Positions 19,684 through 42,633 of a DNA stretch of 64,000 nucleotides are shown in pieces. The DNA comes from Bilabrum cf. latius. Taxonomy: Eukaryota. Numbering within the stretch: the stretch's first letter is position 1; the number at the start of each line of letters is the position of its first letter. Below the pieces are notes generated by a model. That model was not told the DNA's origin, did not search any database, and saw only the letters and a list, made by a program, of their open reading frames with translations. The stretch is from positions 310,001 to 374,000 of the forward strand of contig OZ237747.1 of assembly GCA_965178125.1 (NCBI GenBank), given 5' to 3'. The translations under genes were made by a program, and so were the position numbers.

Positions 19684-19890
19684 TTTGCCTTTCCACCCGA
19701 GACTTATGGATGCAAGTTCAAATATGAGCAATATAATAATCCTTTACTGCGCAGGACGACTGTGGTAGCCGACTACACGATGTCAAAAGGCCAGTTCGCA
19801 ACCAGCGGTTGCAACCAAAGTAACACGTAACAAAAACTGCTTTGACGAAATGTGGCAGTCAACCTGTACAAGCAAAAGTACGTCTTAATC

Positions 19891-21792
19891 ATGGCGTCCT
19901 CTTCGCTGCATTTGGTAAACCCCAAGGCTGAGGTTATGAAGCGTGCTTAGGCCCTCATGATCAATGTAAACGCCGCGAAGGGAATGTCAGAGGTATTGAA
20001 GACAAACCTTGGTGAGTTTCACTAGCTCTATTTGAGATTCAACACGATTCTATTCGGTTGGGATAGCTACTATGTTAATTGTAGTGTACAAAAATAGCCT
20101 GTCATGCGAGTTGGAGACCGCTCGCTCCCTGGTGATCTTGCCGTGTGACATCTTGAACTATCTGCACTTCGAACCGAATTGTAGCATTCCCCGCCCGCAG
20201 GCCCAAAGGGGACGCTGAAGATGCTGGTAGGGGGAGCGGGAGACATTAGGTTAACAAAGGATGGCAACGTGTTGCTTCATCAGATGCAGATTTAGCATCC
20301 CACGGCTATCATGATTGCTCGGGCAGCCACTGCTCAGGACGATGAGACTGGCGACGGGACAACCTCCACAGTTTTGTTCACAGGAGAGCTTTTGAAGTTT
20401 GCGGAGAGATACATCAGCGATGTGAGCCATATTCTGTTCTTCTAACCCCCCCCCTCAACTGTCCTTCGCTAGCTTCTGCCCTCAGAGCTCGCTGTCGTTC
20501 CACCTGAGCCGCTGCGCGTTTCGCAGGGAGTGCATCCTCGCATTATCGCCGACGGTTTCGACCTTGCTCGCAAGCATTCCATTGCATTCTTGGAGGGCTT
20601 CTAGGTCCCCAAGCCAGAGGCGCACCTGGATCGGGAGCTGCTGTGCTCGGTGGCCCGCACCAGCCTGCGCTCCAAGCTGCTCCCGACAATGGCGGACCAG
20701 CTGACCGAGATCGTGACCGATGCCGTGCTGTCCATCCGCAAGGACGACGAGCCCATCGATCTCCACATGGTGGAGCGCATGCACATGGAGCACCGCAGCG
20801 ACGCCGACTCTAGGCTGGTCAAGGGCCTGGTGCTGGACCACGGCTCGAGACACCCCGACATGCCCAAGCGGCTGGAGAACTGCTACATCCTCACCGCCAA
20901 CATCTCCCTCGAGTACGAGAAGACCGAGATGAAGGGCGGATTCGTGTACAGCACCGCCGCAGAGCGCGAGTCCCTCGTTGCCGCGGAGAGGCGGTGGGTG
21001 GACGAGCGCGTGGAGAAGATCCTCGAGCTCAAGCGCAAGGTGTGCACCAAGGAGAACGGCAAGACCTTCGTGATCATCAACCAGAAGGGGATCGACCCCA
21101 TCTCTCTGCACGCCCTCGCCAAGGAGAACGTGATCGCGCTGCGGAGGGCCAAGCGCAGGAACATGGAGAGGCTGATGCTCGCGTGCGGCGGGTACCAGGT
21201 CAACTCGACGGAGGACCTGACGGAGGACGTGCTGGGGCAGGCTGGCGTGGTCTTCGAGGAGGTGCTGGGAGAGACCAAGTACACCTTCGTGGAGGACGTG
21301 AAGAACCCAGGCAGCGTGACCATTTTGATGAAGGGTCCCAACAAGCACACCATTGCGCAGCTCAAGGACGCAGTGAGGGATGGTCTCAGGGCGGTGAAGA
21401 ACACGCTCGAGGACGCGTCCGTGGTGCCCGGGGCGGGCGCATTCGAGGTGGCGCTGGCGCAGTCCCTCAAGGGGTACGCCAAGGAGGTGGAGGGCAAGCC
21501 CAAGCTGGGCGTGCTGGCCTTCGCGGAGGCCGTCATGGTGGTGCCCAGGATCCTCGCGGAGAACAGCGGGTTCGACGTGAGCGACGTCCTCCTGCGGCTG
21601 GAGGAGGAGCAGGCCAAGACAGGGGTCAAGGCGGGTCTGGACCTCGAGACCGGCAAGCCCATGGTGCCTGAGGAGCTCGGCATCTGGGACAACGCCCGCG
21701 TGAAGAGACAGGTAATCCAGCTCGGCCAGGTGCTCGCGTCGCAGCTGCTGCTCGTGGACGAGGTGCTGCGTGCGGGACGCGGAAGCCGATGA
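19891..21792 (+). CDS. CCT6: T-complex protein 1 subunit zeta (chaperonin CCT6), 535 aa; exons 19891-20011, 20201-20421, 20527-21792
   Basis: Motifs [78 protein letters not shown] and [11 protein letters not shown]. Two GTGAG..CAG introns. Three in-frame TAG (19948, 20293, 20602). TGA stop. Confidence 0.97.
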
Positions 21793-21972
21793 GCTGTCGA
21801 AACAAGGTGCCAGTATCGATTGTGACGCGAGTTGACAGAGCAAGAAACTCTGTTGGTGCATCCGGCTGCCGTACTAAGCTCAAATTCTCTGTTTTGCTGA
21901 CACATCCAAGAGTCGAGGCGACCGAGCTCATGTAGAGCCTATCGCCAGCAACAGGACACGACAAACCGAAAT

Positions 21973-23683
21973 TCATGTCGCCTTCTTGATTGGCTTTCCG
22001 ATGGCGTACACCTCGAAGCCGATGGCTCGAAGGTCGTCATGGGGCAGGATGTTGCGCCCATCGAACACAAAGGCGGGCTTGGGCATCCCGTCGTAGATCC
22101 GCTTGTAGTCGAGAGTCTTGAACTCGTCCCACTCGGTCATGACGCAGATGGCATGCGCCCCCTTGCACGCCTCGTACACGTCGGACACGAGCGGCAGGGA
22201 GTTGTCCAGCCCGCGGTAGTCGTCCTTCGTGACGCCCATGGTGTACTCCATCTCCATGAGCATAGACTCGCGAGACACCTTGGGGTCGTACACGGATACC
22301 TTCGCCCTCTCCTCCAACAGAGACTTTGCCACGTAGGCGGCGGCCGTCTCCCTCGTGTCCCCCGTGTCCTTCTTGAAGGCGAAGCCGAGCATGGCGATGT
22401 TCTTGCCGGTCACGCTGCGGAACATGGTCTCCACCATGTTGTGCGCGAACCTCTCCTTCTGCCAGTCGTTCAGCTTGACCACCTGGTGCCAGTACTCGGC
22501 CACCTCGGTCAGGCCGTACCGCTGGCACAGGTACACGAGGTTGAGCACGTCCTTCTGGAAGCAAGAACCGCCGAAGCCCACGCTGGCCCTCAGGAACTTG
22601 GAGCCCACGCGGGTGTCGGTGCCGACCGCCCGGGAGATCTCGTCCACGTCCGCGCCGGTTGCCTCGCACACGGCAGAGAACGCGTTGATGCTGCTGATCC
22701 TCTGGGCCAGGAAGGCGTTGGCCGCGAGCTTGCTCAGCTCCGAGGACCAGGTGGACGTGGTGAGGATGCGCTCCCGGGGCACCCACTGCGAGTACACCGC
22801 CACCACGGTGGCCAGGGCCTTCTTGCCCGACTCGTCGCTCTCCCCGCCGATGAGCACGCGGTTGGGCTTCATGAGGTCGTCCACCGCGGTGCCCTCGGCG
22901 AGGAACTCGGGGTTGGAGAGGACGTCGAACTTGACGCCCTCCTGAGAGTTGGCGTCCAGGACGCGACGAAGGGTCTCGGCGGTGCGCACGGGCACGGTGC
23001 TCTTCTCGATGACGATCTTGCTCGTCTTTGCCAGGCGTCCGATGGTCCGGGCGCAGCTCTCCAGACGGCCAACATCGGCGGCCTTGCCGGCGCCGATGCC
23101 GTGCGTCTTCGTCGGCGTGTTCACCGATACAAAGATGATGTCGGCCTCTGCTACGTTCTTTTCGACTTCAGATGAGAAGAACAAGTTCTTGCCGCGGCAA
23201 GACTTCACAACCTCATCGAGACCTGGCTCATAGATGGGTAGCGTGTCGCTGTTCCACGCATCGATCCTCTGCAGGAAAGTTAAGAGCAACACTATAAACA
23301 GTAATATTCATATCATGAACCATTCCATTGGGAGTGTCCCTTTTCGCGGGAGATTGTGGCAAAAGCGAGCACCGCAGCCTCTCTCGGGAAAACAAGGCCA
23401 ACGCGCGTATCTGGCTGGCTCACAGCTTTGCTAATGTCAACCACTGTCACGGTCAGCATAGGGCAGTTCTTAGCAATCACAGCCATGGTGGGACCTCCGA
23501 CGTAACCTGCGGGATGAATTGATGCCACAATGGTTGAAAATCAAATGACTGGCGGTTTCGCGGAAAACAACTTCAACGCAACACCTGAGCCTGACCTGCG
23601 CCCATGCAGCAAATCTTGAGGCCCTTCACATCAGGGATTCCAGCTGCTGCTCCACCTGTTGCTGCACCAGAGACGGCTGCCAT
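21973..23683 (-). CDS. UGDH: UDP-glucose 6-dehydrogenase, 488 aa; exons 23683-23596, 23506-23424, 23268-21973
   Basis: [14 protein letters not shown] is assembled across intron 1. Further motifs: [70 protein letters not shown] and FDGRN. No in-frame TAG. TGA stop. Confidence 0.97.
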
Positions 23684-24458
23684 TTCTGTCGCTGCTTGAA
23701 TCGCTGAGATACGGCTCGGCCGTTGTGGCAGCGGCAAGTAATGCCTCACCGGGCGACCGGAGCACCCAGTCCCCAATCTCACCCTGATCAGGTCAAAGCA
23801 TGCGAGCGACCGCCGACCGAGCCTCAGGTCGAGATATCTCTGCGGAACGACCCGATGGCTTGGGTAGCAACATAATAGTACGCCTTGTCTCCGTCCGGCC
23901 GCGCGATCCGTCCTCGGCCGCTCTTGGAGTCGTACATGTAGGTGGCCAGCATGCCGGTCCCCTGCGGCCACGAGGAGGGGGGGCTCACGTCGTCGGGGCT
24001 GCCGGTCCAGTCCACCCACTGCACCTCGTAGTCACCCAGCCCCTCGAAGTGAGCGGCCACCGTCACGGCCCCGTTGGTAGGCTTCGCCACCGCACCGGTT
24101 GAGAGCCCGTTCGCCTTGGTCCGGATGGTTCCCTTGAACACCCCGATTCCTTTGTCCCAGTTGTCCCCTACCCAACAGGCCACAATCACCGTGTCACCAT
24201 CACCGGCACCCGCCGTGAAATCGACGTGGTCCATGTGCAGCGAAATCGACGTGGTCCATGTGCAGCGTCTCGTTGAACCACGCGTTGGCGTCCCCTCGCA
24301 TGGCCACCGCAGTGCTGGCGTTCAGCACGGACTGCCAGCTCGCGCCACCGTCCAGGCTGAGCAAGGTGCCGTTCCTGCTGATCGTGGTAAGGTATACGAG
24401 CCGGGTGACCGTGGATCCTCCCGCCTTTAGCTCCTTGGACCCCACCCGGAAAGCAGCA

Positions 24459-24511
24459 GCACCTGCACCTGCACCTGCACCTGCACCTGCACCTGCACCT
24501 GCACCTGCACC
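24459..24511. repeat. (GCACCT)n microsatellite, about 9 units, encoding poly-(Ala-Gly) on the minus strand
   Basis: Directly visible. Confidence 0.95.
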
Positions 24512-24757
24512 GGCGGAACTCGGCACCTGCCAAGAGTACAGCCCGGTGAAACTGAGGTAGGGCAGCTTGGTCGCGTTGTATGTCCCGTTTTTTAAGGGCA
24601 CAGATGCAGGAGACCCGCGAACTTCATCTTGTCCCCCTTGTTGTCGTTGATGAACACGCACCCCGTCTCTGGTACCACTGCTACGTCGTTGACATAGGCG
24701 TGGGTCAGGTCGTACGTGCTGGTGAAACCGTTCCCGCCCCAAGAAAAATTCCTGCCC

Positions 24758-24875
24758 CCGGTCCCGCGGACCCACTGGGCTTCACCCCGAACGACTGGTT
24801 CTTCACCGGTCCACCTGAATGCGGTATTCATCTGACACTGCGAATGTACACACCACTTTCCCCATGCACCCGACT
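24758..24875. repeat. About 118-bp segment present in inverted orientation at 28368-28485
   Basis: ccggtcccgcgg...cacccgact is the near-identical reverse complement of agtcgggtg...cgcgggaccgg. Confidence 0.9.
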
Positions 24876-25374
24876 CGCCTCTCGTGGTCTTCTGTGGCAA
24901 AGGCTCGCCTCTCCGTTGCCGCCTAGCACCAGCACGTGCGCGGGGAACAGCGTGTGTACCACACTATGTACTCACGGGTCATGCAGGACCACTCAAGGAT
25001 CCTCGATTTTGTCTCGAAGGGATCGAGGAGGGCTGCAGCGAAGGCCAAACGGGCGCTCGCAAGGGCGGTCCGGGAGGACTTTGCCAGCCTGGCTGTAGGG
25101 GCAGCCGAAAACAACAACCTCGCCGTGGCGATCGCCAACGTCAAGGCAGGGTTGGCTCAGAACGGGCAGCAGGGCGGGGTGCCGGCAGCGGGCGCCGGAG
25201 GGAACGTGAACGCTGACGCTCCCCAGGGGGAAATGGGTCCCCAGGGTGGAGCTTAGGTGGTTTAGGCCATTGCAGCTGAAGCGTGAAGTCTGGTAGGTCC
25301 CGGGCCCTCGTTCCAGATGTTTCTTCGTGATAGCGTGCGCTTTTGAGTTGAGTTCACAAAATATCAGATCCCCC

Positions 25375-25772
25375 CACCCGACTGGCCTCGTCGCCACATG
25401 GCTTCCTGTTCCTGTTCCTGTTCCCCACCCTAGGGACCGTGTGCTTTGCTCCCAGCATTGCCACCTTGGCCCTATCCTTTCAGCTTGCACGCGCCGGTCC
25501 TGGCCGACCTGCCGTGCGCCCCATCTGTCCACCCACCTGTTGGCCTTCTGCGTGCTGCTGGCCATGCAGTCCGCTGCCACCCGCGTCTCCCTCGTGCCTT
25601 GCACCTGGAGCCCCCATTCCTCCCGTTGTGTTCTCCCTGTTGACACCGCACTGTCGTCGCCTGTGCCGGTGCCCCCCTCTTCTTCTCCACCTCCTGTCCT
25701 CCTGCGCCCACCTCGTCTTCCGTCTCACCTCTGCTCCCCGTTGCTTCAATCCTGATGTCCGAGTACATATAA
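25375..25772. repeat. Left arm of a roughly 395-bp inverted repeat flanking zinc-finger gene 1
   Basis: Near-identical reverse complement of 27985-28376. The same spurious peptides appear on opposite strands in the ORF track (25480-25749 minus, 28008-28277 plus). Confidence 0.93.
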
Positions 25773-26122: not shown

Positions 26123-27982
26123 CAGACTGCGTGCTGGCAGTGCGCGGAGTCCATGTTCATTGCGGAACCTCGAGGCCAGGAAGGCTTCACTCTTGGCTAT
26201 TCATCGCGCCTATCGAATAGTACGAGAAGCGTCGTCGTGTAAATTCCATCCCTCTCTGTAACGGCTTCTTCAGTTGCCATCACTGTGGCGAGTTGGGTGT
26301 CTCCAGGCAAGGCCCCGAAACCCCTGACCTAGTACTGGAGCAGACTGGAAGCCGTGGTGTAGCTAGACTCGGCTGACATTGGTTTTGAGTCCGATCAACT
26401 TGAAGTGGAAACAAGCTTGTAAGACAGAGCAGGCTTTTCTTGCATCTTGGTGTGTTTTCCATGGCAGGTCCAAATGAGGTGATTGACCTGGTGAGCAGTG
26501 ATAGTGAAGAAGAGTTTGAGGGCAACCCCGGCGGAAGCATGGGGGTTGGTGAACGTGTAGAAGAGGCATCATTTGGACTAGGTGCCGTTGTATCACGGAG
26601 TGGGCGAGCTGGGCGAAGCTGGATGGCATTTGGTCCAGAGTTGTCGTCAGCACCAAGTTCAACAGCTACATTGCCCTTGGCTTCTGGAGTCTAGTCAACT
26701 GAATCGATGTCATCTAGTGCTCCCAGCACAGGTGCGCGCTTGGGGCAGAAGAGAGTCCATGACGACTTGGAGGCTGCCGTAGAAGCTGGCGATGCAGTGG
26801 ACGAGCACGGTGCAAGCAACAACAAGAAGAAGGAGAAGAGGAGGAGAAGGGAGCCGAGTCCAGCGGCAGGGGAACTCACCAGCGATATGAGCAAGGGATA
26901 CGATTGCTCTGTGTGCGGCAAGCGCTTTGGGCAGGCAGGCACTCTCACAAAGCACATGAGGACTGTGCACCTTGGGGAGCGCAATCACGAGTGCTCTGTG
27001 TGCGGCAAGCGCTTTGGGCAGGCAAGCAATCTTACAAAGCACATGAGGACTGTGCACCTTGGGGAGCGCAATCACGAGTGCTCTGTGTGCGGCAAGCGCT
27101 TTGGGCAGGCAGGCAGTCTCACAAAGCACATGAGGACTGTGCACCTTGGGGAGCGCAATCACGAGTGCTCTGTGTGCGGCAAGCGCTTCGGGCGCCCAGA
27201 CAGTCTCACGACGCACATGAGGACTGTGCACCTTGGGGAGCGCAATCACGAGTGCTCTGTGTGCGGCAAGCGCTTTGGGGAGGCAAGCACTCTCACAAAG
27301 CACATGAGGACTGTGCATCTTGGGTAGCGCAATCACGAGTGCTCTGTGTGTGGCAAGCGCTTCGGGCGCCCAGACAGTCTCACGACGCACATGAGGACTG
27401 TGCACCTTGGGGAGCGCAATCACGAGTGCTCTATGTGCGGCAAGCGCTTTGGGGAGGCAAGCAATCTTACAAAGCACATGAGGACTGTGCACCTTGGGGA
27501 GCGCAATCACGAGTGCTCTGTGTGCGGCAAGCGCTTTGGGCAGGCAGGCAGTCTCACAAAGCACATGAGGACTGTGCACCTTGGGGAGCGCAATCACGAG
27601 TGCTCTGTGTGCGGCAAGCGCTTTGGGGTGCCAGGCACTCTCACAAAGCACATGAGGACTGTGCACCTTGGGGAGCGCAATCACGAGTGCTCTGTGTGCG
27701 GCAAGCGCTTCGGGCGCCCAGACAGTCTCACGACGCACATGAGGACTATGCACCTTGGGGAGCGCAATCACGAGTGCTCTGTGTGCGGCAAGCGCTTTGG
27801 GCAGGCAAGCAGTCTTAAGAAGCACATTGTCGTATTGCACTGATAGGTTAGGATACGCTCTGTGCATGGCCTGTACGGGCAACCCATGCCTGCCGGCACC
27901 AGTGGCAAATGTATTCCTGCATTTCTGCTTTATTGTTGGCGCGGTGTTCTCTCTTTCGTGGGTAGAACTGGGGTCAGTATCC
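26123..27982 (+). repeat. Segmental duplication copy 1 (upstream region, ZF gene and 3' flank); copy 2 at 32497-34592
   Basis: Both copies begin cagactgcgtgctggcagtgcgcggagtc and end gggtcagtatcc, with high similarity throughout. Confidence 0.92.
26461..27843 (+). CDS. Tandem C2H2 zinc-finger protein 1 (SIM-like N-terminus, NLS, 11 fingers), 460 aa
   Basis: Starts at ATG 26461 (MAGPNEVIDLVSSDSEEE), reads through TAG 26692 and 27325, has KKKEKRRRR and 11 x 28-aa repeats CSVCGKRFGxxxxLxxHMRTVHLGERNHE, and ends at TGA. Confidence 0.9.
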
Positions 27983-27984
27983 TG

Positions 27985-28485
27985 TTATATGTACTCGGAC
28001 ATCAGGATTGAAGCAACGGGGAGCAGAGGTGAGACGGAAGACGAGGTGTGCGCAGGAGGAGAGGAGGTGGAGAAGAAGAGGGGGGCACCGGCACAGGCGA
28101 CGACAGTGCGGTGTCAACAGGGAGAACACAACGGGAGGAATGGGGGCTCCAGGTGCAAGGCACGAGGGATACGCGGGTGGCAGCGGACTGCATGGCCAGC
28201 AGCACGCAGAAGGCCAACAGGTGGGTGGACAGATGGGGCGCACGGCAGGTCGGCCAGGACCGGCGCGTGCAAGCTGAAAGGATAGGGACAAGGTGGCAAT
28301 GCTGGGAGCAAAGCACACGGTCCCTAGGGCGGGGAACAGGAACAGGAAGCCATGTGGCGACGAGGCCAGTCGGGTGCATGGGGAAAGTGGTGTGTACATT
28401 CGTAGTGTCAGATGAATACCGCATTCAGGTGGACCGGTGAAGAACCAGTCGTTCGGGGTGAAGCCCAGTGGGTCCGCGGGACCGG
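27985..28485. repeat. Right arm of the inverted repeat (27985-28376 matches 25375-25772; 28368-28485 matches 24758-24875)
   Basis: Direct reverse-complement comparison. Confidence 0.92.
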
Positions 28486-31400
28486 AGACATCCCTGGCAG
28501 GTGGAGCTGGTGCGCGTGGGCGTATGTTGATCTATTCCGGATCATGAGCGGCTCGGACTGGGGATCGGATCGTCTGACCACAAGCTGCAGACGAGGAAAT
28601 CTGGGAAGTCACATTTGGACTTGAGCGGCAATCGAATCGCGGTGCTCTTCGATCGCTGAGGGGCCAGCGCCCGCGCGATTTGCGGCTGGCGCTTCCAGAG
28701 GGCACCCCGGCGAGTTCCGGGGCTTCCTCTCCCGCGCGCGGTGCCGTGGGGGACAGCAGCAGCACTAGCGGGGGCATGGGGGCTGTGTCATCTGTCAGGG
28801 GTAGCGCGCAGGGAGGCAGCAGCGGCCCACTGTCGAGCGAGACCTATCCGCAGCTGGAGGCCGCGGCAGCCTCGTTGGCGCACACTTCCCGCCGTTTGGG
28901 CGCCGCCTACGGCGATTCCATGGCGCGGGCCCGGCTCGCCGCCGCCAACGCGCCGGTGCTGCGGTCCATCGCAGGGGCCGTGGCCGGCTGGCTCATCGGC
29001 GGCGGCACCGTGGCGCAGGCGCTGCGCCTGATGGGTGCCGGCGCGGAGACGGCGGGCGGTGCCATGTTGTCCGACGACGCGGTGCGGGCGGTGGCCCCTG
29101 ACCTGGCGCGGTCGGTGCTGCACGCGACCCAGGGAACAAGTGGGGAGCAGGCGGAGGCGCAGGCCAGGGACTGTCGCTCGCAGTACATGCACGCGATGGG
29201 GTCCGCCGTGCGCATCCTGGAGCTGTACGCTGGCCACCTGCTTGCTGGGGGTCAGTGCCAGCGGGCTGTGGATGCTGCCGCGTGCATCGCGCACCTGGCC
29301 AAAGGCGCGGACAGCAGGGCTGCCTCGGCGTGCGGGCGGGGCTCCTGCGGCCCCACGCGCTGGGCGTGCTGACGGCGGCGCTGCAGCGGGCGAGCTGCAA
29401 CGGGGGCGCCCTTGCGTCCACCTTTCTGCACGCAAGGAGGAGCCTCCCTGCCCTGGCCCCGGCCGGTCTGAGGGCCGCAGTGGCCGGGCTGCTGCCGGGA
29501 TGGGAGCGGTCCGTGGAGGATCCAAGCGCGAGGCAGGCGTTGCAGGAGGCTGCTTCCGCGCTTGTGGACGTGGGGGGGTCATCCAGCAAGGGGGGGATCG
29601 GGACGGACCTGCGGTGCGCGGGGTGCCTGCCACCGCCCCCGCCCATGGCACCGGCCGCACTGCGCGTGGGGCTCGGGAGCAGTGCCGGCGCTGCATTCTG
29701 CAGGCGATGGGGACTGGCACCCGGGCTCGCTCGCCAGGTGCACGCCGTGGCCGCGGCGGCGCTTCCCTGCGTGCCTAGCGCGCGAGGTGTGTCTGCCTTC
29801 GTGCCTGACGCGCGTGCCGCTCTGGCTGCCGCCAACGCGCAGTGCAGGCTGCTCATGGTGGAGCACCACCTCAAGGCCATGGGGCTTGCGAGACCAAGCG
29901 AGGGGCCCCGCGACGCGACGGGGACCCCTGTGCCGAGCGGCAGTGTCACGCCCGCGGGGGGTCCTCTGCTGCTGGGAGCGTCTGCTGGAGAGCGGCTGTG
30001 GGGTGCTTCTAGCTTCGGGCGCACGGTCGGAGACAGAGCGGAGCAGGAGCTGGACTCTCTGCTGCACGCGGTGGGGTGCATCGCGGGGGGCGAGTCTGTG
30101 CGGGACGAGAGCGAGGGAGAGGGAGAGGGAGAGGGAGAGGGAGAGGGAGAGGGAGAGGGAGAGGGAGAGGGAGAGGGAGAGGGAGAGGGAGAGGGAGAGG
30201 GAGAGGGAGAGGGAGAGGGAGAGGGAGAGGGAGAGGGAGAGGGAGAGGGAGAGGGAGAGGGAGAGGGAGAGGGAGAGGGAGAGGGAGAGGGAGATGGGGA
30301 GGGGCAGGACAGGGCGAGCGTGCATCGCGACGCGGATGGCGAGGACGGCATGGGAGGGCAAGGGGTTGCACATGGCAACGGGGTGGGCGTTGGGTCCACC
30401 TAGCAGGTGCGTGACTTGGCTCGGGCCGCGGAGCTTTCGCTTGCGGATCTGAGGGAACAGGGTGCCGACGACGAGGGGGAGCTTTCCTACGGCCCGTTCG
30501 CGCCGGTGCGATCGCTCCTCAAGTACGACGAGACCGCTGACGCGATCAGGGAGGCCGCGTGCGGAAGTGGCGCCGCGCATCCGAGCCTTGGCCTGGCGGT
30601 GTCTGAGCACCTGTGCTGGCGGCGGTTGACTCGCGCGCTGCGGGCGTACCGCCGTTGGCAAGCCTCCGTGCAGGAGCCCCTGGAGGGGGCCCCCACTCTG
30701 GTGGGACTGGCGGGGGGGCACTGGCAGGCCGCGCTGGGTCGGTGGAGGGAGGGGGCGAGCGGGAGGTACAGGCGGGCAGAGCTGCTGGCGCTGCGGGCGT
30801 GGGCCATGCTGGCGGAGGCAGTGGCGGGCGCAGGGGCTGGGGCCCGCGGGTGGCTGCAGGCACCCATGGAGGCGGCAGCAGAGGTGGCGGCTGGATGCCG
30901 GTCTGCGCCCGAAGAGACAGGGGCGATCGGCTGGGGGGCAAGGCTCGGCGGGGCTTCGGGTGCTGCAGATGCATCCGGGACCAGCAGCAGCAGCAACAGC
31001 AGCGGTAGGCGAGCGAAGGCCATTCGCACTCGATGGGCAGCGGGGGCCGCTGCTGCCGGAGTGCTGGGCCCCGAGGACGCTGGCTTGGGAGGACTGGTGC
31101 CCGGACGTGCCGACCTGTGCGTGGTGTCCATCCGTTCGCACGCGCAGGTTCCCTCGCGGCCCATCTCACGAGACCAGGAGGAGGGCGATGAGGACGAGCG
31201 GTTGGAGGCACCGGCATCGACAGGGGCAGGAGCAGGGGCAGGGCGAGGCCGTGAGTGCATCAAGTAGGTTCCGGTCTTCGTGGCTTGGCCCCCCGCAAGT
31301 CCTGGTCCGTGCATGCACTGGGACTAGGACTAGGAATCGGACTCGGACTCGCTCGGGGAACACGGCGGCGCCTCCGCCGCGCCCGCGCACCCGTCCGCTG

Positions 31401-32380
31401 GCGGTGCCCGCGAGGTGAGCCAGGCCATGGCGAGCCTGGAGAACGACTGGACCCGGCCCCGCGGAGCCAACTGCGGGCCATGGGACGAGGCCGGCCTGGG
31501 GCTGGACGCGGGGCGGCTGGGCGGCCGGGGACTCGCGCCCGGGTCCGGGCATGGGGGGGACCCGACCCCCCTGTGCTGCCGCGTGCCCGCCGCCGGCTGG
31601 GTGAGACGGGCCGTGGTGCCTCAGCTGGTCTGGATGATGCACGACGTGATGCATCGCGGTGCGGCGTGGGCCATGCCCTTGGTGCGCGGAGAGGCCGTGA
31701 TGGGAGTGCCCCGGGGCGGCGAGGGAACAAGCGCGGAGGCGAGCAGGAAGCAGGTGCTCGAGCGCATGCTCGCTTTGGCTGGGGACCAGGGCTCCAGAGG
31801 GGCTGTCTCGGCGCTGCGCTGTGCCACTGGAGGTGCAGGTGCAGGTGGTGGGTCGTTGGGCGCGAGGTTGAATGCGGTGCGCTGCAGCGACAGGGTGTGC
31901 GTCCTGCTGCGCCTCGCCATGCGGGTGGGATCGGCTGTGGCAGGCCCCGACGGCATCGGCACCGCGAGCGCTGCTTCGTCCTCCTCCTCGGGCAGCCCGA
32001 GTCCAGTGGCTGTGGGCTCCGTTGGAATCGGCTCAGGGTCCAGGAGGAGCAGCAGGAGCAGGAGGAGGCAGGGGGTGTTGAGCCCGGGCTCTGGGGGTGG
32101 GTCTGGCCTGGGCTCGGCGGACGAAGGGGCTGGGTCCGGGAGCGGGGAGGGGGCGGCGATAGTGTTCGGGGGCGGGGAGGGGGTAAGCGTGGGGGACCGT
32201 CAGGGCAAGGGGTGGGTGCTGGGTGTGCCGAGCGCGGGGGTGCGGGGGTGCTTCACGTGGGGGTGTGGTCCCCGAGGGAAGGCGACGGAGAAGAGGGAGG
32301 TGAAGCGGCTGGCCACTGCCGTGGCCGAGTCGGCTCATTTGCTTCTCGAGGTGCCGGGGGGTCTGGAGGGGATGGTGTGA
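28485..32380 (+). pseudogene. 5'-truncated, disrupted nucleoporin Nup107/Nup84-like gene
   Basis: Segments resemble the Nup107 C-terminal half as I recall it: WCAWAYV, ILELYAGHLL..AACIAHL, AAANAQCRLLM, SEHLCWRRLTRALRAYRRW, VRRAVVPQLVWMMHDVMH and EVKRLATAVAESAHLLLE. ORFs 29255-30403, 30407-31267 and 31415-32380 are joined by TAG. There is a frameshift near 29320 and a TGA at 28575 where the paralogous copy has CGA. No start codon or N-terminal half. Confidence 0.62.
30113..30292. repeat. (GAGGGA)30 microsatellite encoding poly-(Glu-Gly) in frame
   Basis: Directly visible perfect hexamer array. Confidence 0.97.
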
Positions 32381-32836
32381 TTGGAACTCGGCTTGGAATG
32401 GTCAGGGGGCTTCGCATGTGGGCGTCATGGGGATGTGTATCCAAGAGTGCTGTTTGAGTGTCAGCCTTGGTATCTGTGCAAATCCTGGATCGACTGCAGA
32501 CTGCGTGCTGGCAGTGCGCGGAGTCTATGTTCATTCCGGAACCTCGAGGCCAGGAAGGCTTCACTCTTGGCTATTGATCGCGCCTATCGAATAGTAGGAG
32601 AAGCGTCATCGTGTAACTTCAATCTCTGTCTGTATAAGCTTCTTCAGTTGGCATCACTGTGGCGAGTTGGGTATCTCCAGGCAAGACCCCGAAATCCCTG
32701 ACCTAGTACTGGAGCAGACTGGAAGCCGGGGTGTATCTCGACTAGGCTGACATTGGTTTTGAGTCTTATCAACTTGAAGTGAAGACAAGCGTGTAAGACA
32801 CTGCTGGCTATTTGTTTGCATCTTGGTGTGTTTTCC

Positions 32837-34453
32837 ATGGCAGGTCCAAATGAGGTGATTGACCTGGTGAGCAGTGATAGTGAAGAAGAGTTTGAGGGCA
32901 ACCCCGGCGAAAGCATGATGGGGTTTGGTGATCGTGCAGAAGAGGCATCATCTGGACTAGGTGCCGTTGAATCACGGAGTGGGCGAGCTGGGCGAAGCAG
33001 GAGGTCATTTGGTCCCCGAAGTTCAACAGTTGCATTGCCCTTGGCTTCTGGAGTCTAGTCAACTGAATCAGTGTCATCTAGTGCTACCAGCATCCGCTTG
33101 GGACAGAAGAGAGTCCATGAAGACTTAAAGGTTGCCGTAGAAGCTGACAGTGCAGTGGACGAGCACGGTGCAAGCAAGAAGAAGAGGAGGAGGAGAAGGG
33201 AGCCGAGTCCAGCGGCAGGGGTACTCACCAGCGATAGGAGCAAGGGATACGATTGCTCTGTGTGCGGCAAGCGCTTTGGGGAGGCAGGCCATCTGACGAC
33301 GCACATGAGGACTGTGCACCTTGGGGAGCGCAATCACGAGTGCTCTGTGTGCGGCAAGCGCTTTGGGGGGCCAGGTACTCTCACTAAGCACATGAGGACT
33401 GTGCACCTTGGGGAGCGCAATCACGAGTGCTCTGTGTGCGGCAAGCGCTTTGGGGAGGCAGGCCATCTGACGACGCACATGAGGACTGTGCACCTTGGGG
33501 AGCGCAATCACGAGTGCTCTGTGTGCGGCAAGCGCTTTGGGGTGGCAGGCAGTCTCAGGACGCACATGAGGACTGTGCACCTTGGGGAGCGCAATCACGA
33601 GTGCTCTGTGTGCGGCAAGCGCTTTGGGGGGCCAGGTACTCTCACTAAGCACATGAGGACTGTGCACCTTGGGGAGCGCAATCACGAGTGCTCTGTGTGC
33701 GGCAAGCGCTTCGGGCAGGCAGGCAATCTCACAACGCACATGAGGACTGTGCACCTTGGGGAGCGCAATCACGAGTGCTCTGTGTGCGGCAAGCGCTTTG
33801 GGCAGGCAGGCAGTCTCACAAAGCACATGAGGACTGTGCACCATGGGGAGCGCAATCACGAGTGCTCTGTGTGCGGCAAGCGCTTTGGGGGGCCAGGCCA
33901 TCTCAAGACGCACATGAAGACTGTGCACCTTGGGGAGCGCAATCACGAGTGCTCTGTGTGCGGCAAGCATTTCGGGCGCCCAGACAGTCTCAAGACGCAC
34001 ATGAGGACTGTGCACCTTGGGGAGCGCAATCACGAGTGCTCTGTGTGCGGCAAGCGCTTCGGGGAGGCAGGCCATCTGATGACGCACATGAGGACTGTGC
34101 ACCTTGGGGAGCGCAATCACGAGTGCTCTGTGTGCGGCAAGCATTTCGGGGAGGCAGGCAGTCTCACAAAGCACATGAGGACTGTGCACCTTGGGGAGCG
34201 CAATCACGAGTGCTCTGTGTGCGGCAAGCGCTTCGGGCAGGCAGGCAGTCTCACGACGCACATGAGGACTGTGCACCTTGGGGAGCGCAATCACGAGTGC
34301 TCTGTGTGCGGCAAGCGCTTCGGGCAGGCAGGCAATCTCACAAAGCACATGAGGACTGTGCACCTTGGGGAGCGCAATCACGAGTGCTCTGTGTGCGGCA
34401 AGCGCTTTGGGGAGGCAAGCAGTCTTAAGAAGCACATTGTCGTATTGCACTGA
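32837..34453 (+). CDS. Tandem C2H2 zinc-finger protein 2 (SIM-like N-terminus, NLS, 14 fingers), 538 aa
   Basis: Paralog of 26461-27843. ATG 32837, TAG at 33056 conserved with the paralog, KKKRRRRR, 14 x 84-bp finger repeats, TGA stop. Confidence 0.92.
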
Positions 34454-35506: not shown

Positions 35507-38500
35507 TCATTCCAAAGACAAAGCTAGGCTGACATCTCCTAGAACAGTAGATGAGCAAAGAGGCTGGCACGCACCACCCGCGGCAGGGGCCAACACCCCG
35601 TTGGCATCGTCCCGGTCGGACCGGTGGTCAAACGGCAACTTGCAGCTAGCACCGGCATTCCATGACCCAGACCACGGGTACCCATCACCTAGAAACGCCC
35701 ACACATCGTCTGTGCCCAGCGGCATTGGAACAGTCGCCATGCCATGGCTGGACGATGAGCCATGCCCCCGTCCATTGGCACCACCTGAAGACAAACCTGA
35801 AGGCGCAAACGATACGCTCGCATGCGTGCGATTCGCCATGATCGACACCACCCCCTCGCACAGCACTCCGCCGCCAGGTACTATTCCCTGCATACCCCCA
35901 CCACACACACCCAGCGCAACCTCGCTGCCGTGCTCCTGCGTGCCAGCCATGGCAAACACGAGAGAAGATGTCCCGTTCACCTGCACCCCGATCCTGACCG
36001 GAGCGCCACCATCCCCAACGGTCGCCACAGTGGCACGAGAACAAGCCAGGCCCGTGCCCGTGCCCCCGCCAAACACGCTCACATTGAAAGGCAATGTGAG
36101 CTCCACCCGACCGCTGGGACCCCTTAGTGCCCACGAGGGCACCTCCAGCCCGATCGACCCGTTGCCACAGACCGTTCCGACTTGCGCCATGGGCAGCTGT
36201 GGGATCGGAGCCGCTGCAGTGGGCCCCGTGGCGTTGGATACGACTGCAACGGCCGCAGGTGGGGGGAACTCATACAGGGCCTTGGTGCCAGCTGGGTCGC
36301 TGGCGTTGAGCCACATAGCTCGGGTGGCCGGTGCTGGCGGCGAGGCCGTGGCAGGCGACACTTTCGGAAGGCCTAGAGACGAAGCAAAGGAATTGGCCGC
36401 TCCGGTGTGAAGCACGAACTGGTCCGCATCTCCTGGTGCTCGCCACGCGAGCAGTGCATGCACGTTGCCGACCAGGCCTGGCACTGTGCTCGCGGGAATC
36501 GCCTTGCCGCCCACGCGAGCCACGCCCGTCGGGGCAGACAAGTTTGCCGCTCGCGGTGGGAAGGACACATTCAAGGCAAGCATTGAGGTCAGTCCAGTCC
36601 GCACGAACGCGGCGACTCCCCTCTCTGGCCAGAGCGACACTCCAACGTACTGCCACGGCGGCCTGCCATGCACCGAGCTGTTGCGGTATGCGCTACTGTT
36701 GGCACACAGCGGGCTGCCCTCGGGCACTTCCACGTTAAGGCCATCCTTCGCGCCGTGCACGTACACGGTTGGACATCCCTTTGGCGTCATCGCAAACACC
36801 ATGCCGCTGGTTGTGCCCGGTGCTGCATTTCTGGTGTCCAGAAACGTGCCTGTCGCCAGAGGCTTGTAGCCAAGCGGTGAGATCCACGCGCCGATCGACA
36901 CGCCGTGGCTGCTCTCCGCATCGAATGCTCCCCGCAGGCCCAGCTCCTGCGTGCCATGGAACTGCAGGGCATGCACCGGCGGGGTCGGTGGCTTGGCTTC
37001 AACGAGGGCAGGCGCTCGATTCATTGGTGTGTTTTCCCGGGGATGTGCCAGCAGTGGCGTGTCATTGGAGGCTGCAGAGTCGTCCTATTGTTGGGACCCG
37101 ACGAGGGGAAGGCCCTGGATCACGGCAACTCGTATGCTCCGTGGGCTTGCACCGCTCGAGTAGCTCACCACCAGAGTCCGAGGACGGGCCGAGGAGTCTG
37201 AGGAGGACGACTACAAGTTCATCGCATTGGTTGGTACGGTGCCCCAGGCCATCTGGGGGTACATTGCTAGCTCGCCCAGTTCTGTAAAGGTGATCCCAGG
37301 TGCAAACCCGAGTGGAGCCACGCGCCTACCTGTCATAACAGAATGTTTCAAGTGTTCCGTGCCGTCCAAAGGCGATCGAGGCAGCGCTGCCGACGGTGCC
37401 GACGGTAATGGCCCGTCCTACGCAACCATGGTAAACACCGCTGCGCTAAGTCGCCCCGACACGTGGGACTCGGCGTAGTCGTTGTGCACCATGGGTATCC
37501 GGTGCACCGGAGAATCACCGATCGCATCGCGGACGGGGACGGCCCGCGTGCTGCGATGCATGCCTGGCTATGGTGGCCGGAGGACGTGCGGCCGAGACAC
37601 AGTCGTGTCGATCCCCACAGGCTACAAGTCGCTCCAGGAGCCGCCCCCGTCGATGCTGGTGCTCCAAAGGAGCCTCTCCCACGGCATCGGGCCCCCATCG
37701 CTCGGTGCTCTGAAATCGTTGTTGCGGCAGAGCATCACCAGGCCCCACTAGCCACCCACTTCCGATGCCCCATGCCCACGATTGGACGGATTGTCGCCAA
37801 CAGTTGGTCTGGATGGGTACATCGTCGCCCCGGCACTGCTGCTGCCTCTGCTGCTGCTGATGGGGTCCTGCAGCCAGGCCTCGTAGACGGTCGGCTCCCA
37901 CTGCGCCCAGGACTTTCCCGGCTGGATCGTTCCCTCAGAGAAATTCCAGGTGGTCCCCGCGTCGTCTGAAAGCATGACGCTGCACCTATGGCCAATCGAA
38001 AAGAACCCTGAAACGTTCGCTGGCGCATCGGGCGCTCGGCCACTCCCTGTCGCGTTCGTGAGAACCACTGGTGCCACAATCCGGCCGCTGAAGCGGGTAT
38101 CGCGGCTCACTTGAATGGGATCCTGGCTTGGAAATATTTTCCAACGAGTGCCGTTGAAGACTGGGTTTGGTGAACCTCCGAACGTGACAAATCGGGACTG
38201 GAATCGCTGCTCGGACTTGGAATACTCAGACCAGTACATGCCAAGTTTCGCCGCAGTTGCGCTGCCATCTTGGCTCCACGATGCTCCAAGGTACTCTTCA
38301 TCACTTCCTGGCTTTCGGAAAACCAAAAAGTTTGGCTGCCATTGCAGGCAGCCAACCGGAGGACATGCAACGCCCGGGAACGCGATCTTGTGCGGGCTCC
38401 AAGTGCCTTTGGGACCACCAGTAGAAGGATCATGGTCTGAAACCGACAGATAGTTCAACTAACCAGGTTTTCCTTCTTTCGCGATCTAGTTTCCATTCCA

Positions 38501-38659
38501 AGATACTAGCCATTCCCCGTCGAATTTTATAATGCTCGAATCGTGGTTGTATTGCAAGTCCTCGACAGCTGCGTTTACAACGAACTGCCTCTCGATCTGT
38601 ATGTTCGGGGCATGGTATTGGTAGCCAAGAACCAATGGGATCATGCATAGCCACTTCAT
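35507..38659 (-). CDS. Secreted sialidase-like (BNR/Asp-box beta-propeller) protein with a LamG/ConA-like domain, about 1050 aa
   Basis: ATG 38659 gives a hydrophobic start (MKWLCMIPLVLG). Motifs: YNHDSSII..WLVSWNG..EGKPG*, Asp-boxes SDDAGTTW and SIDGGGSW, WEPTVYE, LVMLCRN and MYPQM, then LamG-like VSIGAWISP..WQYVGV. The frame stays open via TAG to TGA 35507-35509. Confidence 0.75.
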
Positions 38660-38777
38660 CACGTGCGGCTACAGTTGCCGAGCGCGATGTCCGCTGGGAT
38701 CGCGCCCACGAATGACGAGCGAAGCATTCTGCTCTGCAGCGTGGTCATCTTTGGTGCACAGGTGTATCCTGAGTCCA

Positions 38778-40671
38778 ATGAAGGGCGTCAAATCCTTTGC
38801 AATCAAGAAGCGCTCTGCGCCCGGCGACTTTTTGCTAACTCGATTCGACGAGGCTAGGTTGCAAGTGAGGCCATGCGTTGAAGGTTGTTGCATCACCGCA
38901 AAACTATACCCGAGATCAAACCATTTTGACCGTGCATCTTAATACAACTTTTACAGCAAGCGAGTGGACAGCAAGCAACTGTCGTGGTGCGGCCAGAGCT
39001 GGAGAAGTTTCGAGATGGCGTTGTGATGCGTGAAATCGAACGCACTGACCGAAGAATCCAGACTAGAAATGATAAGGGGCAGCGAGAGGCTAGGAAAGAG
39101 CATTTGATTCAAGTTTGTGACGGCTGGTCGATCAAGCATGGGGAAGAGGCCACCCCTCAAGACTTGCAGTTGTACGAGGGAGCCCAGGACGACGAGCAGC
39201 CAGAGTATGCTGTATTTGTGAGGGACACGGACGATTCTGGCAACTTGCTGGATTCTTACACGGCATATGCAGTAGACGAGGCTTGGACATTCCTCAAGCA
39301 GTCCACTGTCAAGCGACAGACAGCCGAGCAGGCCGAGGAGGAGTTCCTGGCTATGCGTGCTGCTGGCCCGGTGAGTGTATTGGCTAATATCTGTGGTAAT
39401 TATCGGACCCCAATAGGGCGCGCGAGAGCGATGCAAAGCATCTGATTCGGCTGCTTCGCCAGCGCACTGGCACCCGCGCCCTCTCCCCGGCAATCTCCTC
39501 GTCGCAGAAAAGAAGCCGGATGGGCAAGTACATCGAACGAATGCAGCAAATGGATAGCGTGTCTGAGCAGCAGGAGGGGCTGGTTCGGACCATGGAAGAC
39601 GAGATGCCCGCGATGAACGACGAATCTCTCGAAACGGGGGCAGGCGACCAGCAGAAATCGATCTCTAGCTCCTCGGCGTCCAAGGCGAGCACGTCCTCCG
39701 GAGCAGCTGCTTCTTCGAGTCAGCCGAGGTACCAGACGGCAAACCGGGAGGGCATCGCCACAGCCGTGCTGCAGACCGGAGAGCTGGGCAGCCAGGCACT
39801 GCGGGATGCGCAGGCGGGGCAGGACCTTGTGGACGACGAGGTAGAGGAGGACAGGAGGGCGCGACAGAACGAGCTGCAGAGGCTGGAGGACGATGGGGAT
39901 ATCGTGGCGGAGACCAGGTTCGGTGCCACAAGTCTCGAGGGGTTCGCGGACGTGGACTTTAGGGAACAATTCGACGACGACGAGGGCGTGGACGCCGACC
40001 TCATGGTAGCCGAGTCGCAGGCTCTGGGGCACGAGGTCGCGAGGGAGGACGAGCTGGCGGTGGGCCGGCGGGTGGTCTCGGGGGGCGCCTCTGGATGGGA
40101 AGACGAGGACAACGACGCGATCCTGGGGGGAGAAGGAGAAGAAATGACGGATGAGGCGGCGGACGCGGCCGAGCGAGCGCGGGCGTTTGGGGCGAGCAGC
40201 AGCAGCCGGTACCAGGGCAAGTCCCAGGTGGAAATGTCCGCGCTTGGAGCCGTGGCGAGCAGCAGCAGCAATAACAGCTCAAGCACAGCAGGAGTTCCCG
40301 GGGGGGATTCGGCACAGGCTAGCGGTAGGAAGCGGGGCGCCCCTGATTCGGACGGCACCGCCGGGGCTGGCCGAGGAGATGCGCCGACCGCGAAGCGAGC
40401 ACGCTCCGAAGCAGGTGCTCCTGCCGCCGGCGAAGGCAGCAGCCAGCCAGCGGCAAGCACAGCAGGCATTTTGCGGACAGCGATCTTGGACCTGCTAGAG
40501 CGCAGCGGCGGCAGGGTGAGCAAGCGTAATCTCACGAGGCTGCTGCGGAGGCTGCAGCGCAAGCACGGCGACAACATCAAGATCCCGTTCCCGAGGGTGC
40601 TTAGCACGCTTGCCAAGCGAGAGGCATCGGGAACTGACGTGTTCTATGTACAGATTAAGAAACGCGTTTAA
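38778..40671 (+). CDS. Transcription factor IIF large subunit (RAP74/TFG1-like), 554 aa; exons 38778-38864, 38957-39370, 39508-40671
   Basis: YAVF..YAVDEAWTF..TAEQAEEEF resembles the RAP74 N-terminal motif. It is followed by acidic DVDFREQFDDDEG and a C-terminal winged-helix-like segment. Two phase-0 GTGAG..CAG introns. Ends at TAA. Confidence 0.75.
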
Positions 40672-40840: not shown

Positions 40841-41041
40841 ATGCCAGGAAAGTCTGCAAAGAAGGGAATGTCGGCAAAGGGCAAGGCTGCGGCAGGAGAT
40901 GCTGCTGCTGCTGCTTCCGCTCCCGCTCGAGGACCAGCGAAGGGCCGGAATGGCAAGGGGAAGGCAAAGAGCAAGGCAGGCGCCACTGGGCCCGCGAAGA
41001 GTGCGGGCGGCGTTAAGGCATCGGGCAAGTCGCGCAAGTGA
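40841..41041 (+). CDS. Small Lys/Ala/Gly-rich basic protein (66 aa), histone-H1-tail-like
   Basis: MPGKSAKKGMSAKGK...KASGKSRK-TGA. Called on composition only; it overlaps the 3' end of the opposite-strand USP frame. Confidence 0.5.
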   Translation: MPGKSAKKGMSAKGKAAAGDAAAAASAPARGPAKGRNGKGKAKSKAGATGPAKSAGGVKASGKSRK

Positions 41042-42335
41042 TCTGACGAATGCAATGCTCGCTCCAAAAGAGCTCTGCAAGCGTGCTACTGCCATCAGTG
41101 GTGCGAGCGAGCACGAGCGGGGAGAGGCCACCAGATTGAAGCCGCGGCAGAGCCTAGGCTAGAAGGGTTGGCTCATATGATTGACCCGTGCTGGGTAAGG
41201 TCCCACGGTTCACGCACAGTCGACCGCGATCCAGGCTGCGGAACACGGCGCCAATCGCTCCGGGAGGCCGATCCTTTGGCGGCTCTGGGATCTGCTTCCC
41301 GGGCATGAACAGCCGCGCCCCGTCGTGCAGATCAGAAGGGTGAAGACGGCCCGAGGCCTTGAGGGCAACTAGGCGAAACGCGTGCCTGACGCAGAATTTT
41401 GCAAACGGCTCGCAATGCATCAGGCACTGCAGCGTGCTATTCATGAAACACGTATTCCCCAAGTTGTCCAGCCCACCACCGATGCCTGCACGCAGCCTAC
41501 CAGTGCCGAAGCAAGCGTACTAGAACCCCACCTTCATTGATTTGATATCTCCCGCCTTTGCCTCGACTACCTGAACCATCGCTTCGGTCAGCCCACGGCC
41601 CCAGCCCTCGCCGAGCTCCTCGCTGACACCAATCATCTCGGGACGCTCCGGGGCCGTACCCCGGGCCACGGCTGCCGACGATGCAGGAAGCGCACTGGCA
41701 GGGACACCCAGAGCAATGGCAGACTTGGTGGTGGGCGGCACGACTGGTTGGCCGAAACTGGCAGCTGCCTCGCTGGTGCGTCCCGGTGGTGATGGCCAAT
41801 GCCCGTCGGAAGTTTTTGTCTCCAGCGGTCCCATGCGAGCAGTTCCTGGGGGAACCGACGCGGGCACCAACTCACCGGTACTCATGGTTCTTTTACTCTG
41901 GGTAGAGCTGGCAACAGTGCTCTGAGATGGCACTGGGCTGTTCGCAGCCCGGGAAATCCGCGCACTCTCGTCTGAGCGGAACTTTACCACGCCTAGCAGC
42001 CTCCATCGCTCGCCATAAGACACCCTAGCCGAGTCTGTTCGCTACTAGGTCTGCGACTTGATGGCCAACTTATCTGAAGATGACGTCGAGCGCCTAGGGT
42101 TGTGGCGCTTGGCACCCTGCAGCCCCTCGCATTCGACCTCCATCCCTGCAATTGTCTCGCGCCTCGGGCGTTTTTGTCCGATACTAGCATCCGGAAATTG
42201 ATGGGCTGATACTGAATCAGCTTCGTGCCGATTTTTCAAAGCTCTACCTGCTGCCTTGCCAGTCATCATGCGGCTTGCTTCCTCAGATTCCATCCCGACA
42301 GCCCGATGAGAGCCCTCCTTGAATCTATTACTCAT
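41013..42335 (-). CDS. Ubiquitin-specific protease-like (USP36/42-type Cys box), apparently truncated, about 440 aa
   Basis: Three track ORFs are joined by TAG. Cys box GGGLDNLGNTCFMNSTLQCL. The frame ends at TAA 41013-41015 after RQITCATC. No QED/His box is visible. Confidence 0.6.
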
Positions 42336-42633
42336 GACAAAGGTCGCACAAAGATGCAATAAACACAAACGGCGAGTAGGCTTTCGAATAGGCAGCAGAG
42401 AATGGCTGTCGACGATTGCAGTTCAAAATCAGCTCAAATAAGACATCTCATTTTATCTGCACGCAACCCAATGCGGCGCTCGTTGTGCTGCTACAGCTGC
42501 GAGTTACTGCCCATTTCCCCCTCATTTCTCTCACGTTTTCGTGAAGATGATGTGTCTAATCTAGGGGTTGCTGCTTACAAGTGAGCTGAAGTGCCTGTGG
42601 ACTTGTACAACACCTGCGTGACACATGTGTCAA

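Follow-up and report, generated by a model that had tools for sequence, protein, structure and literature searches.

Two poly-zinc-finger genes

We analyzed a window of 64,000 nucleotides (contig OZ237747.1, positions 310,001 to 374,000), which corresponds to part of contig C13 in the assembly that we searched (G000; 48.6 Mb in 111 contigs). Our subject is two paralogous genes on its forward strand, gene A and gene B, which encode 11 and 14 tandem C2H2 zinc fingers behind a short N-terminal region (Table 1). The initial annotation, made from the sequence alone, had recognized both genes and their finger counts correctly, but it gave the repeat unit as 84 bp. The unit is 87 bp: all 10 spacings in array A and all 13 in array B have this length, and Tandem Repeats Finder reports a period of 87 with scores of 1528 and 1928, respectively. 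Each unit encodes 29 residues (C-x2-C-x12-H-x4-H, with the linker LGERNHE). A Pfam scan matched PF00096 to every finger of both arrays, which together with the repeat scores excludes a chance origin. As expected for classical C2H2 fingers, a single-sequence structure model predicts a hairpin and a helix for each finger (pLDDT of roughly 60-79 there). The closest known structures are the DNA-bound fingers of ZFP568, CTCF, and PRDM9, and ZFP568 is the best match in the Protein Data Bank (PDB).

We number the recognition helix as in Zif268-type fingers, with contacts at -1, +2, +3, and +6. Among the internal fingers of arrays A and B, nucleotide identity outside the helix is 0.976 and 0.978, respectively, and it falls to 0.750 and 0.743 within the helix. 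Of the amino-acid diversity across both arrays, a share of 0.62 falls on the contact positions, 0.22 on +1 and +5, and 0.16 on the framework, so variation is concentrated at the contacts but the earlier statement that it lies almost only there was too strong. Similarly, the framework is nearly invariant, as had been stated, but this does not extend to all synonymous sites: beside the helix, phenylalanine is encoded 16 times by TTT and 9 times by TTC. The helices quoted in the initial annotation (QAGTLTK, QASNLTK, RPDSLTT, EAGHLTT, GPGTLTK, VAGSLRT, and VPGTLTK) are all present. It also proposed that finger types are shared and shuffled between the two genes. We found no whole 87-mer in common and just one common helix 21-mer (encoding QAGSLTK), but there is recombination at the level of the subfamily, as described below.

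The host and its genetic code

We read the host as a bicosoecid-like stramenopile, a unicellular flagellate, which agrees with the earlier description of a protist family. The nearest named matches of the mitochondrial atp1 are from Cafeteria roenbergensis (66%) and Cafileria marina (58%), and the named matches of one enzyme encoded in the window are from ochrophytes (65-67%).

The initial annotation did not mention that both genes contain in-frame TAG codons (codons 78 and 289 of gene A and codon 74 of gene B). Sequence comparisons across the genome indicate that the nuclear code reads TAG as glutamine and retains TAA and TGA as stops. Given this code, both genes are whole (460 and 538 amino acids). 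In 680 fingers from the first 60 arrays that we collected, there are 38 in-frame TAG codons and no TAA or TGA. The 2791-codon frame of PRP8 holds four TAG codons and ends in TGA, and the BiP frame holds one, although single sites in these two genes are not decisive alone for the meaning of the codon. Among dynein genes, 24 matches have TAG as their sole internal stop type, and 15 regions with frames of 2587-3333 codons hold 202 TAG codons. In the 169 TAG columns that were scored, the residues of the dynein paralogues follow the profile of CAG (r = 0.97) and that of CAA (r = 0.94); the best non-glutamine profile reaches 0.77, and we rejected leucine, glutamate, lysine, and tyrosine as the meaning of TAG. 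Glutamine is the residue in 24 of the 38 conserved TAG columns. Furthermore, the nuclear genome encodes a tRNA with the anticodon CUA (69.8 bits, at G000:C23:907607-907679), and HSP70 genes terminate at TAA and TGA.

The TAG codons might instead have been a mark of pseudogenes; we rejected this on the evidence of PRP8, the 24 dynein matches, and the dynein column profile. An intron at the shared TAG need not be assumed once TAG encodes glutamine. The same assignment is the meaning of NCBI table 15 and occurs in the fornicate Iotanema, whereas the host here appears to be a bicosoecid-like stramenopile. We found no report of this code in bicosoecids in the literature that we searched, which covered few subscription papers. 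Because the lineage reads TAG as glutamine, standard-code annotation would break these zinc-finger genes.

A large and dispersed family

The initial annotation recommended collecting all genomic copies and aligning their repeats. Doing so revealed a family that extends well beyond the two genes: at least 66 arrays on 16 contigs, with 752 fingers in total and 4-19 fingers per array (median 11). This is a floor, as we scored 150 of 1067 PF00096 candidates and some loci lie outside the set. A count of the linker pattern (246) fell short of the number of fingers collected, and we set it aside. (Two of the 66 entries are halves of one split gene. Three divergent C2H2 genes, at C3:330129, C9:909253, and C26:700187, and one two-finger tail were left out.) Tandem clusters of family members occur on C3, C4, C5, C13, and C24. 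All 66 arrays have different helix strings, and 686 fingers show 191 different signatures at -1, +2, +3, and +6. Not one of the 686 finger spacings is irregular. As a side observation, the six-gene cluster at G000:C4:918-942 kb has been duplicated along with pieces of a coding sequence that we take, by its look, to be a PI3K-like kinase.

The family is transcribed. The evidence comes from two spliced sequencing runs (X5 and X6, from two studies) that are labelled only as possible RNA. In a neighboring gene, both have GT-AG joints that are lacking in a DNA run (X1), with no differences from the window there, and both have no cover at 23798-24535. They cover the region of gene A by way of many short contigs with paralogue-type differences.

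Concerted evolution and diversifying selection

The arrays are homogenized by gene conversion and unequal exchange, and their fingers recombine and change in number. In the framework, fingers of one array are identical at 0.943 and fingers from different, randomly chosen arrays at 0.829, which implies concerted evolution. In the 13-gene subfamily that includes A and B, the four-gamete test fails at 171 of 231 site pairs, part of which recurrent mutation could mimic.

Purifying selection acts on the framework, and the residues that contact bases evolve under diversifying selection. Over 57 arrays, the pairwise, descriptive ratio of nonsynonymous to synonymous diversity (pN/pS) is 2.08 at contact sites and 0.36 at other sites; the corresponding values for the arrays of the window are 2.41 and 0.26. 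Of 23 subfamilies, 22 have a higher pN than pS at the contact sites, as do 63 of 64 arrays, and 22 have a lower pN than pS in the framework. Contact-site pN is 0.32, which is twice the pS of 0.15 at the same codons; it is also higher than helix-region pS in 21 of the subfamilies. The third positions of the variable helix codons are mostly fixed. We therefore rejected a mechanism like that of diversity-generating retroelements (DGR), or local hypermutation, as the source of the variation: third positions stay fixed and pN exceeds the local pS. Arginine at -1 is associated with aspartate at +2 (odds ratio 14.7), with different codons across five subfamilies. This pairing is known from Zif268-type DNA-binding fingers.

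We also computed the share of diversity that lies at contact sites (the statistic of Baker et al.). For arrays A and B it is 0.69 and 0.58 if four sites are counted and 0.50 and 0.53 if three are. Across 64 arrays the median is 0.50 (range 0.27-0.90), as compared to 0.14 if variation were uniform. Thus, the four contact sites carry about 50-70% of the diversity. The reported shares are 0.687 for human PRDM9 and 0.910 for mouse, although the sites counted there may differ (PMC5519329, Table 1). The combination of concerted array evolution with diversity at DNA-binding sites is that of PRDM9, as the initial annotation had argued from two genes.

A conserved, predicted SUMO-interacting motif at the N-terminus

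The initial annotation was right that these proteins have no SET or KRAB domain, but it overlooked a conserved N-terminal motif. In 61 of the 67 arrays examined, [VL][IV]DL[VIL] followed by a tract of Ser/Asp/Glu lies 6-11 residues after the initial methionine. (Of the six others, two have YVDLV, one has an incomplete sequence, and the remaining three are fragmentary copies into which an insertion has fallen.) A strict form of the motif is present in 58 of 66 arrays, in 0 of 6600 shuffles, and nowhere in 49,237 amino acids of dynein. A SUMO-interacting motif (SIM) has the consensus hhXh with an acidic or phosphoserine flank, and the validated cores include VIDL (PMC8616421); the N-terminus of the family has such a core and an acidic or serine flank. 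PIAS, PML, Daxx, and K-bZIP have SIMs with the same VIDL core and then Ser/Asp/Glu (PMC8616421). The difference is that in this family of many-fingered proteins the predicted SIM is the one effector that is conserved. The genome has a SUMO gene.

Ahead of the fingers, what is conserved is the predicted SIM and a bipartite basic stretch that resembles a nuclear localization signal (NLS); the SIM is the only conserved part before the NLS. The linker of gene B aligns to those of 19 other subfamily representatives with scores within the shuffle range, and residues 32-134 are predicted to be disordered in the single-sequence model. A Pfam scan of the 148-residue N-terminus matched no family, and no Pfam match to KRAB, SSXRD, SET, nuclease, or transposase domains was found on these two proteins, in a scan that did not include a FiNZ model. 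The conservation of the N-terminal SIM makes it a candidate effector for these proteins.

Comparison to known zinc-finger families

By its fingers this is a classical C2H2 family. It evolves like PRDM9 and is organized like the KRAB and FiNZ families, but as it lacks the domains that define PRDM9 and KRAB proteins, it is probably neither. Like PRDM9, it has a coding minisatellite with a homogenized framework, variable finger number, and diversity at base contacts. Unlike PRDM9, which has a 28-residue HX3H motif and KRAB, SSXRD, and SET domains, it has 87-bp HX4H units, at least 65 paralogues, and a predicted N-terminal SIM; the likeness in sequence is through the generic finger alone. The KRAB-ZNF genes of tetrapods and the FiNZ-ZNF genes of cyprinid fish are likewise large clustered families that combine a short N-terminal module with a tandem C2H2 array. 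They too show positive selection at base contacts and have clusters that attract mobile-element insertions, and the best PDB match, ZFP568, also points in this direction. Being large and dispersed, with a single short motif as its candidate effector, the family is closer to these than to the single-copy PRDM9. In contrast, the KRAB or FiNZ effector is a folded domain and here it is a putative linear SIM; fingers within one gene are far more alike here (0.94 nucleotide identity outside the helix) than in KRAB or FiNZ genes; and the hosts of those families are animals, not a unicellular stramenopile.

Repression of transposable elements has been shown for FiNZ, and Wells and colleagues call their targeting by ZNFs a likely metazoan innovation (PMC10547256, in the passages that treat this). 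Najafabadi and colleagues describe the C2H2 repertoires of non-metazoans as limited and slowly evolving (PMC5588721, likewise in part). Petroll and colleagues reported an expansion of C2H2 genes in red algae, including a unicellular species, from gene counts and trees; this is another case of many C2H2 genes outside animals, but that text does not use the terms PRDM9, tandem, or positive selection (PMC8304369). As regards C2H2 genes, two algal genome papers give, in the relevant sections, family sizes only (bioRxiv 10.1101/2025.02.11.637652 and 10.1101/2024.02.19.579948).

In two homologue searches, the 120 and 150 best matches align over the fingers only, at 28-53% identity. In seven of the 270 the fingers are mostly spaced by 29 residues, and all seven lack both the SIM and a homogenized framework in the fingers shown. 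Animal ZNFs dominate the results of such searches, and gene calls broken at TAG escape them, so they do not demonstrate that the family is absent elsewhere. A metagenome scan gave 4 spurious matches (24-27%) and a viral scan gave none. We found no published report of such a family in bicosoecids, in a search that covered few subscription papers. Finger shuffling and diversification of the PRDM9 and KRAB kind were thought to be confined to animals, and here they occur in what appears to be a single-celled flagellate of marine type. For work on the recognition code, the family also offers a 29-residue finger scaffold whose framework hardly varies and which comes with about 190 naturally occurring helices.

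Mobile DNA and silencing machinery

Two copies of a dispersed non-coding element of about 0.61 kb flank gene A. The element has TG...CA ends, a fixed start, and a variable end after a GC hairpin, and it occurs in tandem copies. None of 15 full-length copies has a target duplication. Helitron-like and tyrosine-recombinase-type elements are candidate classes, and Rfam gave one chance match only. There are 162 candidates genome-wide. When we ranked full copies by their likeness to the copy in the window, 15 of the 42 best-scoring ones were within 1.5 kb of an array, although such ground makes up just 0.6-0.9% of the genome. Of 12 junctions near arrays, 11 are distinct, and three are inside arrays; fingers are absent from 16 of the 20 element loci that we retrieved. 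The zinc-finger clusters thus act as sinks for insertions.

The compact 49-Mb genome contains 84 reverse transcriptase matches, many of them in sets with identical scores, and so has young retroelements. We found no candidate for Piwi/Argonaute in the genome, while two control genomes gave matches. PAZ and RNA-dependent RNA polymerase (RdRP) searches, which were run without a positive control, also gave no match. There is one RNase III match, with a single domain in its frame. Of the SET proteins, an E(z)-type with CXC is at G000:C30:43202-45550.

A proposed role and its rivals

We propose that these proteins are reprogrammable DNA binders with a link to SUMO, that they keep track of mobile DNA, and that they have converged on the KRAB and FiNZ zinc fingers of animals; we put the probability of this at about one half. 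They would be lineage-specific nuclear proteins with a SIM, a disordered linker, an NLS, and a poly-C2H2 array. Each array would read a long DNA site, and the SIM would dock onto SUMOylated chromatin factors (co-repressors, and possibly PRC2) that silence or stabilize the bound DNA. What drives selection may be mobile or inserted DNA of recent origin, in a genome that yielded no Argonaute candidate. The system would work like KRAB or FiNZ proteins with a PRDM9-style array, but with an independent origin. A bolder version, which we think doubtful but worth stating, is that an Argonaute-less stramenopile evolved a protein-guided genome defense, with arrays directed against young retroelements and endogenous viral insertions and the SIM leading to SUMO- or PRC2-linked silencing, in place of guidance by small RNAs.

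Several observations weigh against this proposal. Many predicted SIMs are not real, as the motif is short and degenerate (PMC8616421, in part), and a SIM can equally serve activation, turnover, or targeting to nuclear bodies. Neither Pre-SET (SUV39-type) nor the zf-MIZ domain of PIAS had a match in the genome, in searches without a positive control, and none of the six best of 18 SET matches looks SUV39-like; the H3K9me route that KRAB proteins use may therefore be missing. The residue vocabulary of the helices is narrow (mostly Q/E/V/R at -1, G/S at +2, and T/K/R at +6), and helices rich in Gly, Val, and Ala may bind DNA weakly. Gene conversion voids tree-based dN/dS tests (PMC5519329, in the part that treats them), which is why our pairwise ratios are descriptive. 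Synonymous diversity is raised next to the helix (pS of 0.21 at the flanking codons and 0.10 in the rest), and selection on the N-terminal region is lax (pN/pS = 0.65). Finally, the RNA cover cannot be assigned to gene A or to gene B individually.

An ordinary expansion of transcription factors might account for the family without mobile DNA as the driver: the proteins would rewire host regulation, or responses to prey, viruses, or the environment. Transcription factors have the same arrangement of an intrinsically disordered region, an NLS, and fingers, the red-algal expansions have been read as regulatory (PMC8304369, in part), and the failure to find SUV39 and PIAS, albeit without a positive control, fits as well. 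But even recent tandem duplicates, in the clusters on C3, C4, C5, and C13, differ in their helix strings and finger numbers, and the excess of pN at contacts in 22 of 23 subfamilies implies continuing conflict rather than stable networks. We consider this explanation unlikely.

Alternatively, the arrays might be analogues of PRDM9 that mark sites of meiotic recombination and erode their own targets, with the SIM as a tie to the SUMO-rich chromosome axis. The contact shares (0.58-0.69 in the window and a family median of 0.50) are within the PRDM9 range given in Table 1 of PMC5519329, and the genome has two genes of the Spo11/TopoVIA type. Against this, the proteins lack SET, SSXRD, and KRAB domains, none of the 18 SET matches is at a known family locus, and dozens of paralogues coexist where PRDM9 has one to a few genes. 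A meiotic role, which would also presuppose sex in this organism, is quite improbable.

Neutral minisatellite dynamics, in which purifying selection maintains the zinc fold, helix residues are unconstrained or locally hypermutable, and segmental duplication spreads the family, would explain the raised synonymous diversity beside the helix, the copies split by element insertions, and the lax N-terminus. This explanation had already been weakened by the excess of contact pN over pS, both at the same codons and in the surrounding helix region, by the fixed third positions, and by the recurrence of the Arg(-1)/Asp(+2) covariation, and we give it little credence. Least probable is that the family is itself selfish or takes part in a conflict over segregation, in which satellite- or centromere-binding proteins, as drivers or suppressors, spread with help from the adjoining element: the element is concentrated near arrays with nearly all junctions different, but its insertion points vary, some arrays are broken by it, most of the fetched element loci have no fingers, and the proteins have no nuclease or transposase domain in Pfam.

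Surroundings of the genes and other observations

Table 1. Zinc-finger genes and neighboring features, by position in the window
Feature	Position	Strand	Remarks
Gene A	26461..27843	+	single frame, 460 aa with TAG as Gln, ends in TGA; predicted SIM, disordered linker, and NLS; 11 C2H2 fingers
Gene B	32837..34453	+	single frame, 538 aa with TAG as Gln (codon 74), ends in TGA; predicted SIM, disordered linker, and NLS; 14 fingers
Array A	26905..27840	+	11 fingers, 87-bp period
Array B	33254..34450	+	14 fingers, 87-bp period
SIM-like VIDLV core, then Ser/Asp/Glu tract, gene A	26479..26514	+	from sequence; putative; kept family-wide
SIM-like VIDLV core and acidic tract, gene B	32855..32890	+	from sequence; putative
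Bipartite basic NLS-like stretch (GQKR...KKKEKRRRR), gene A	26743..26850	+	from sequence; predicted function; most family members have one
Bipartite basic NLS-like stretch, gene B	33101..33199	+	from sequence; predicted function
In-frame TAG (Gln78), gene A	26692..26694	+	one paralogue has GAG at this codon
In-frame TAG (Gln289), gene A	27325..27327	+	in linker 3' of finger 5; usual codon there is GAG
0.61-kb element, truncated copy	27983..28485	+	inserted about 140 bp 3' of the gene A stop codon; no target duplication
0.61-kb element, second, interrupted copy	24741..25772	-	pieces 24741-24881 and 25375-25772; upstream of gene A
Spacer and 5' part of gene B	28483..33239	+	second copy, at 94-98%, within an inverted cluster of four genes (G000:C13:258-288 kb), 50 kb upstream
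1092-codon frame	29102..32380	+	GC-rich; (GAGGGA)32 run at 30113-30303; no Pfam match
Sel1-repeat protein	13924-19743	-	15 TAG codons
CCT chaperonin subunit	19883-21877	+	two GT-AG introns
UDP-glucose dehydrogenase	21973-23307	-	
1143-codon frame	35507-38938	-	no Pfam match
UCH fragment	41013-42422	-	
Satellite of 21/42/62-bp units	42645-43895		

In the C13 and C5 clusters, the 1092-codon frame between the two genes has been duplicated together with a zinc-finger gene; its RNA cover is low up to 30050.

Elsewhere in the genome, five near-identical segments each contain a C5 DNA methyltransferase match, a short SET match, and a tRNA-Met (G000:C5:275-282, C7:1154-1162, C9:698-705, C3:1126-1133, and C25:316-323 kb). 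These look like a multi-copy mobile or virus-like insertion. Chromodomain matches include two sets of about 14-17 identical-scoring copies on many contigs, which suggests young chromodomain-bearing elements. The small-subunit (SSU) rRNA gene at G000:C95:6099-7900 is unlike the tandem rDNA on C12, and its source is probably another eukaryote that is present in the assembly; the methylase matches on C81, C86, and C91 may be foreign as well.

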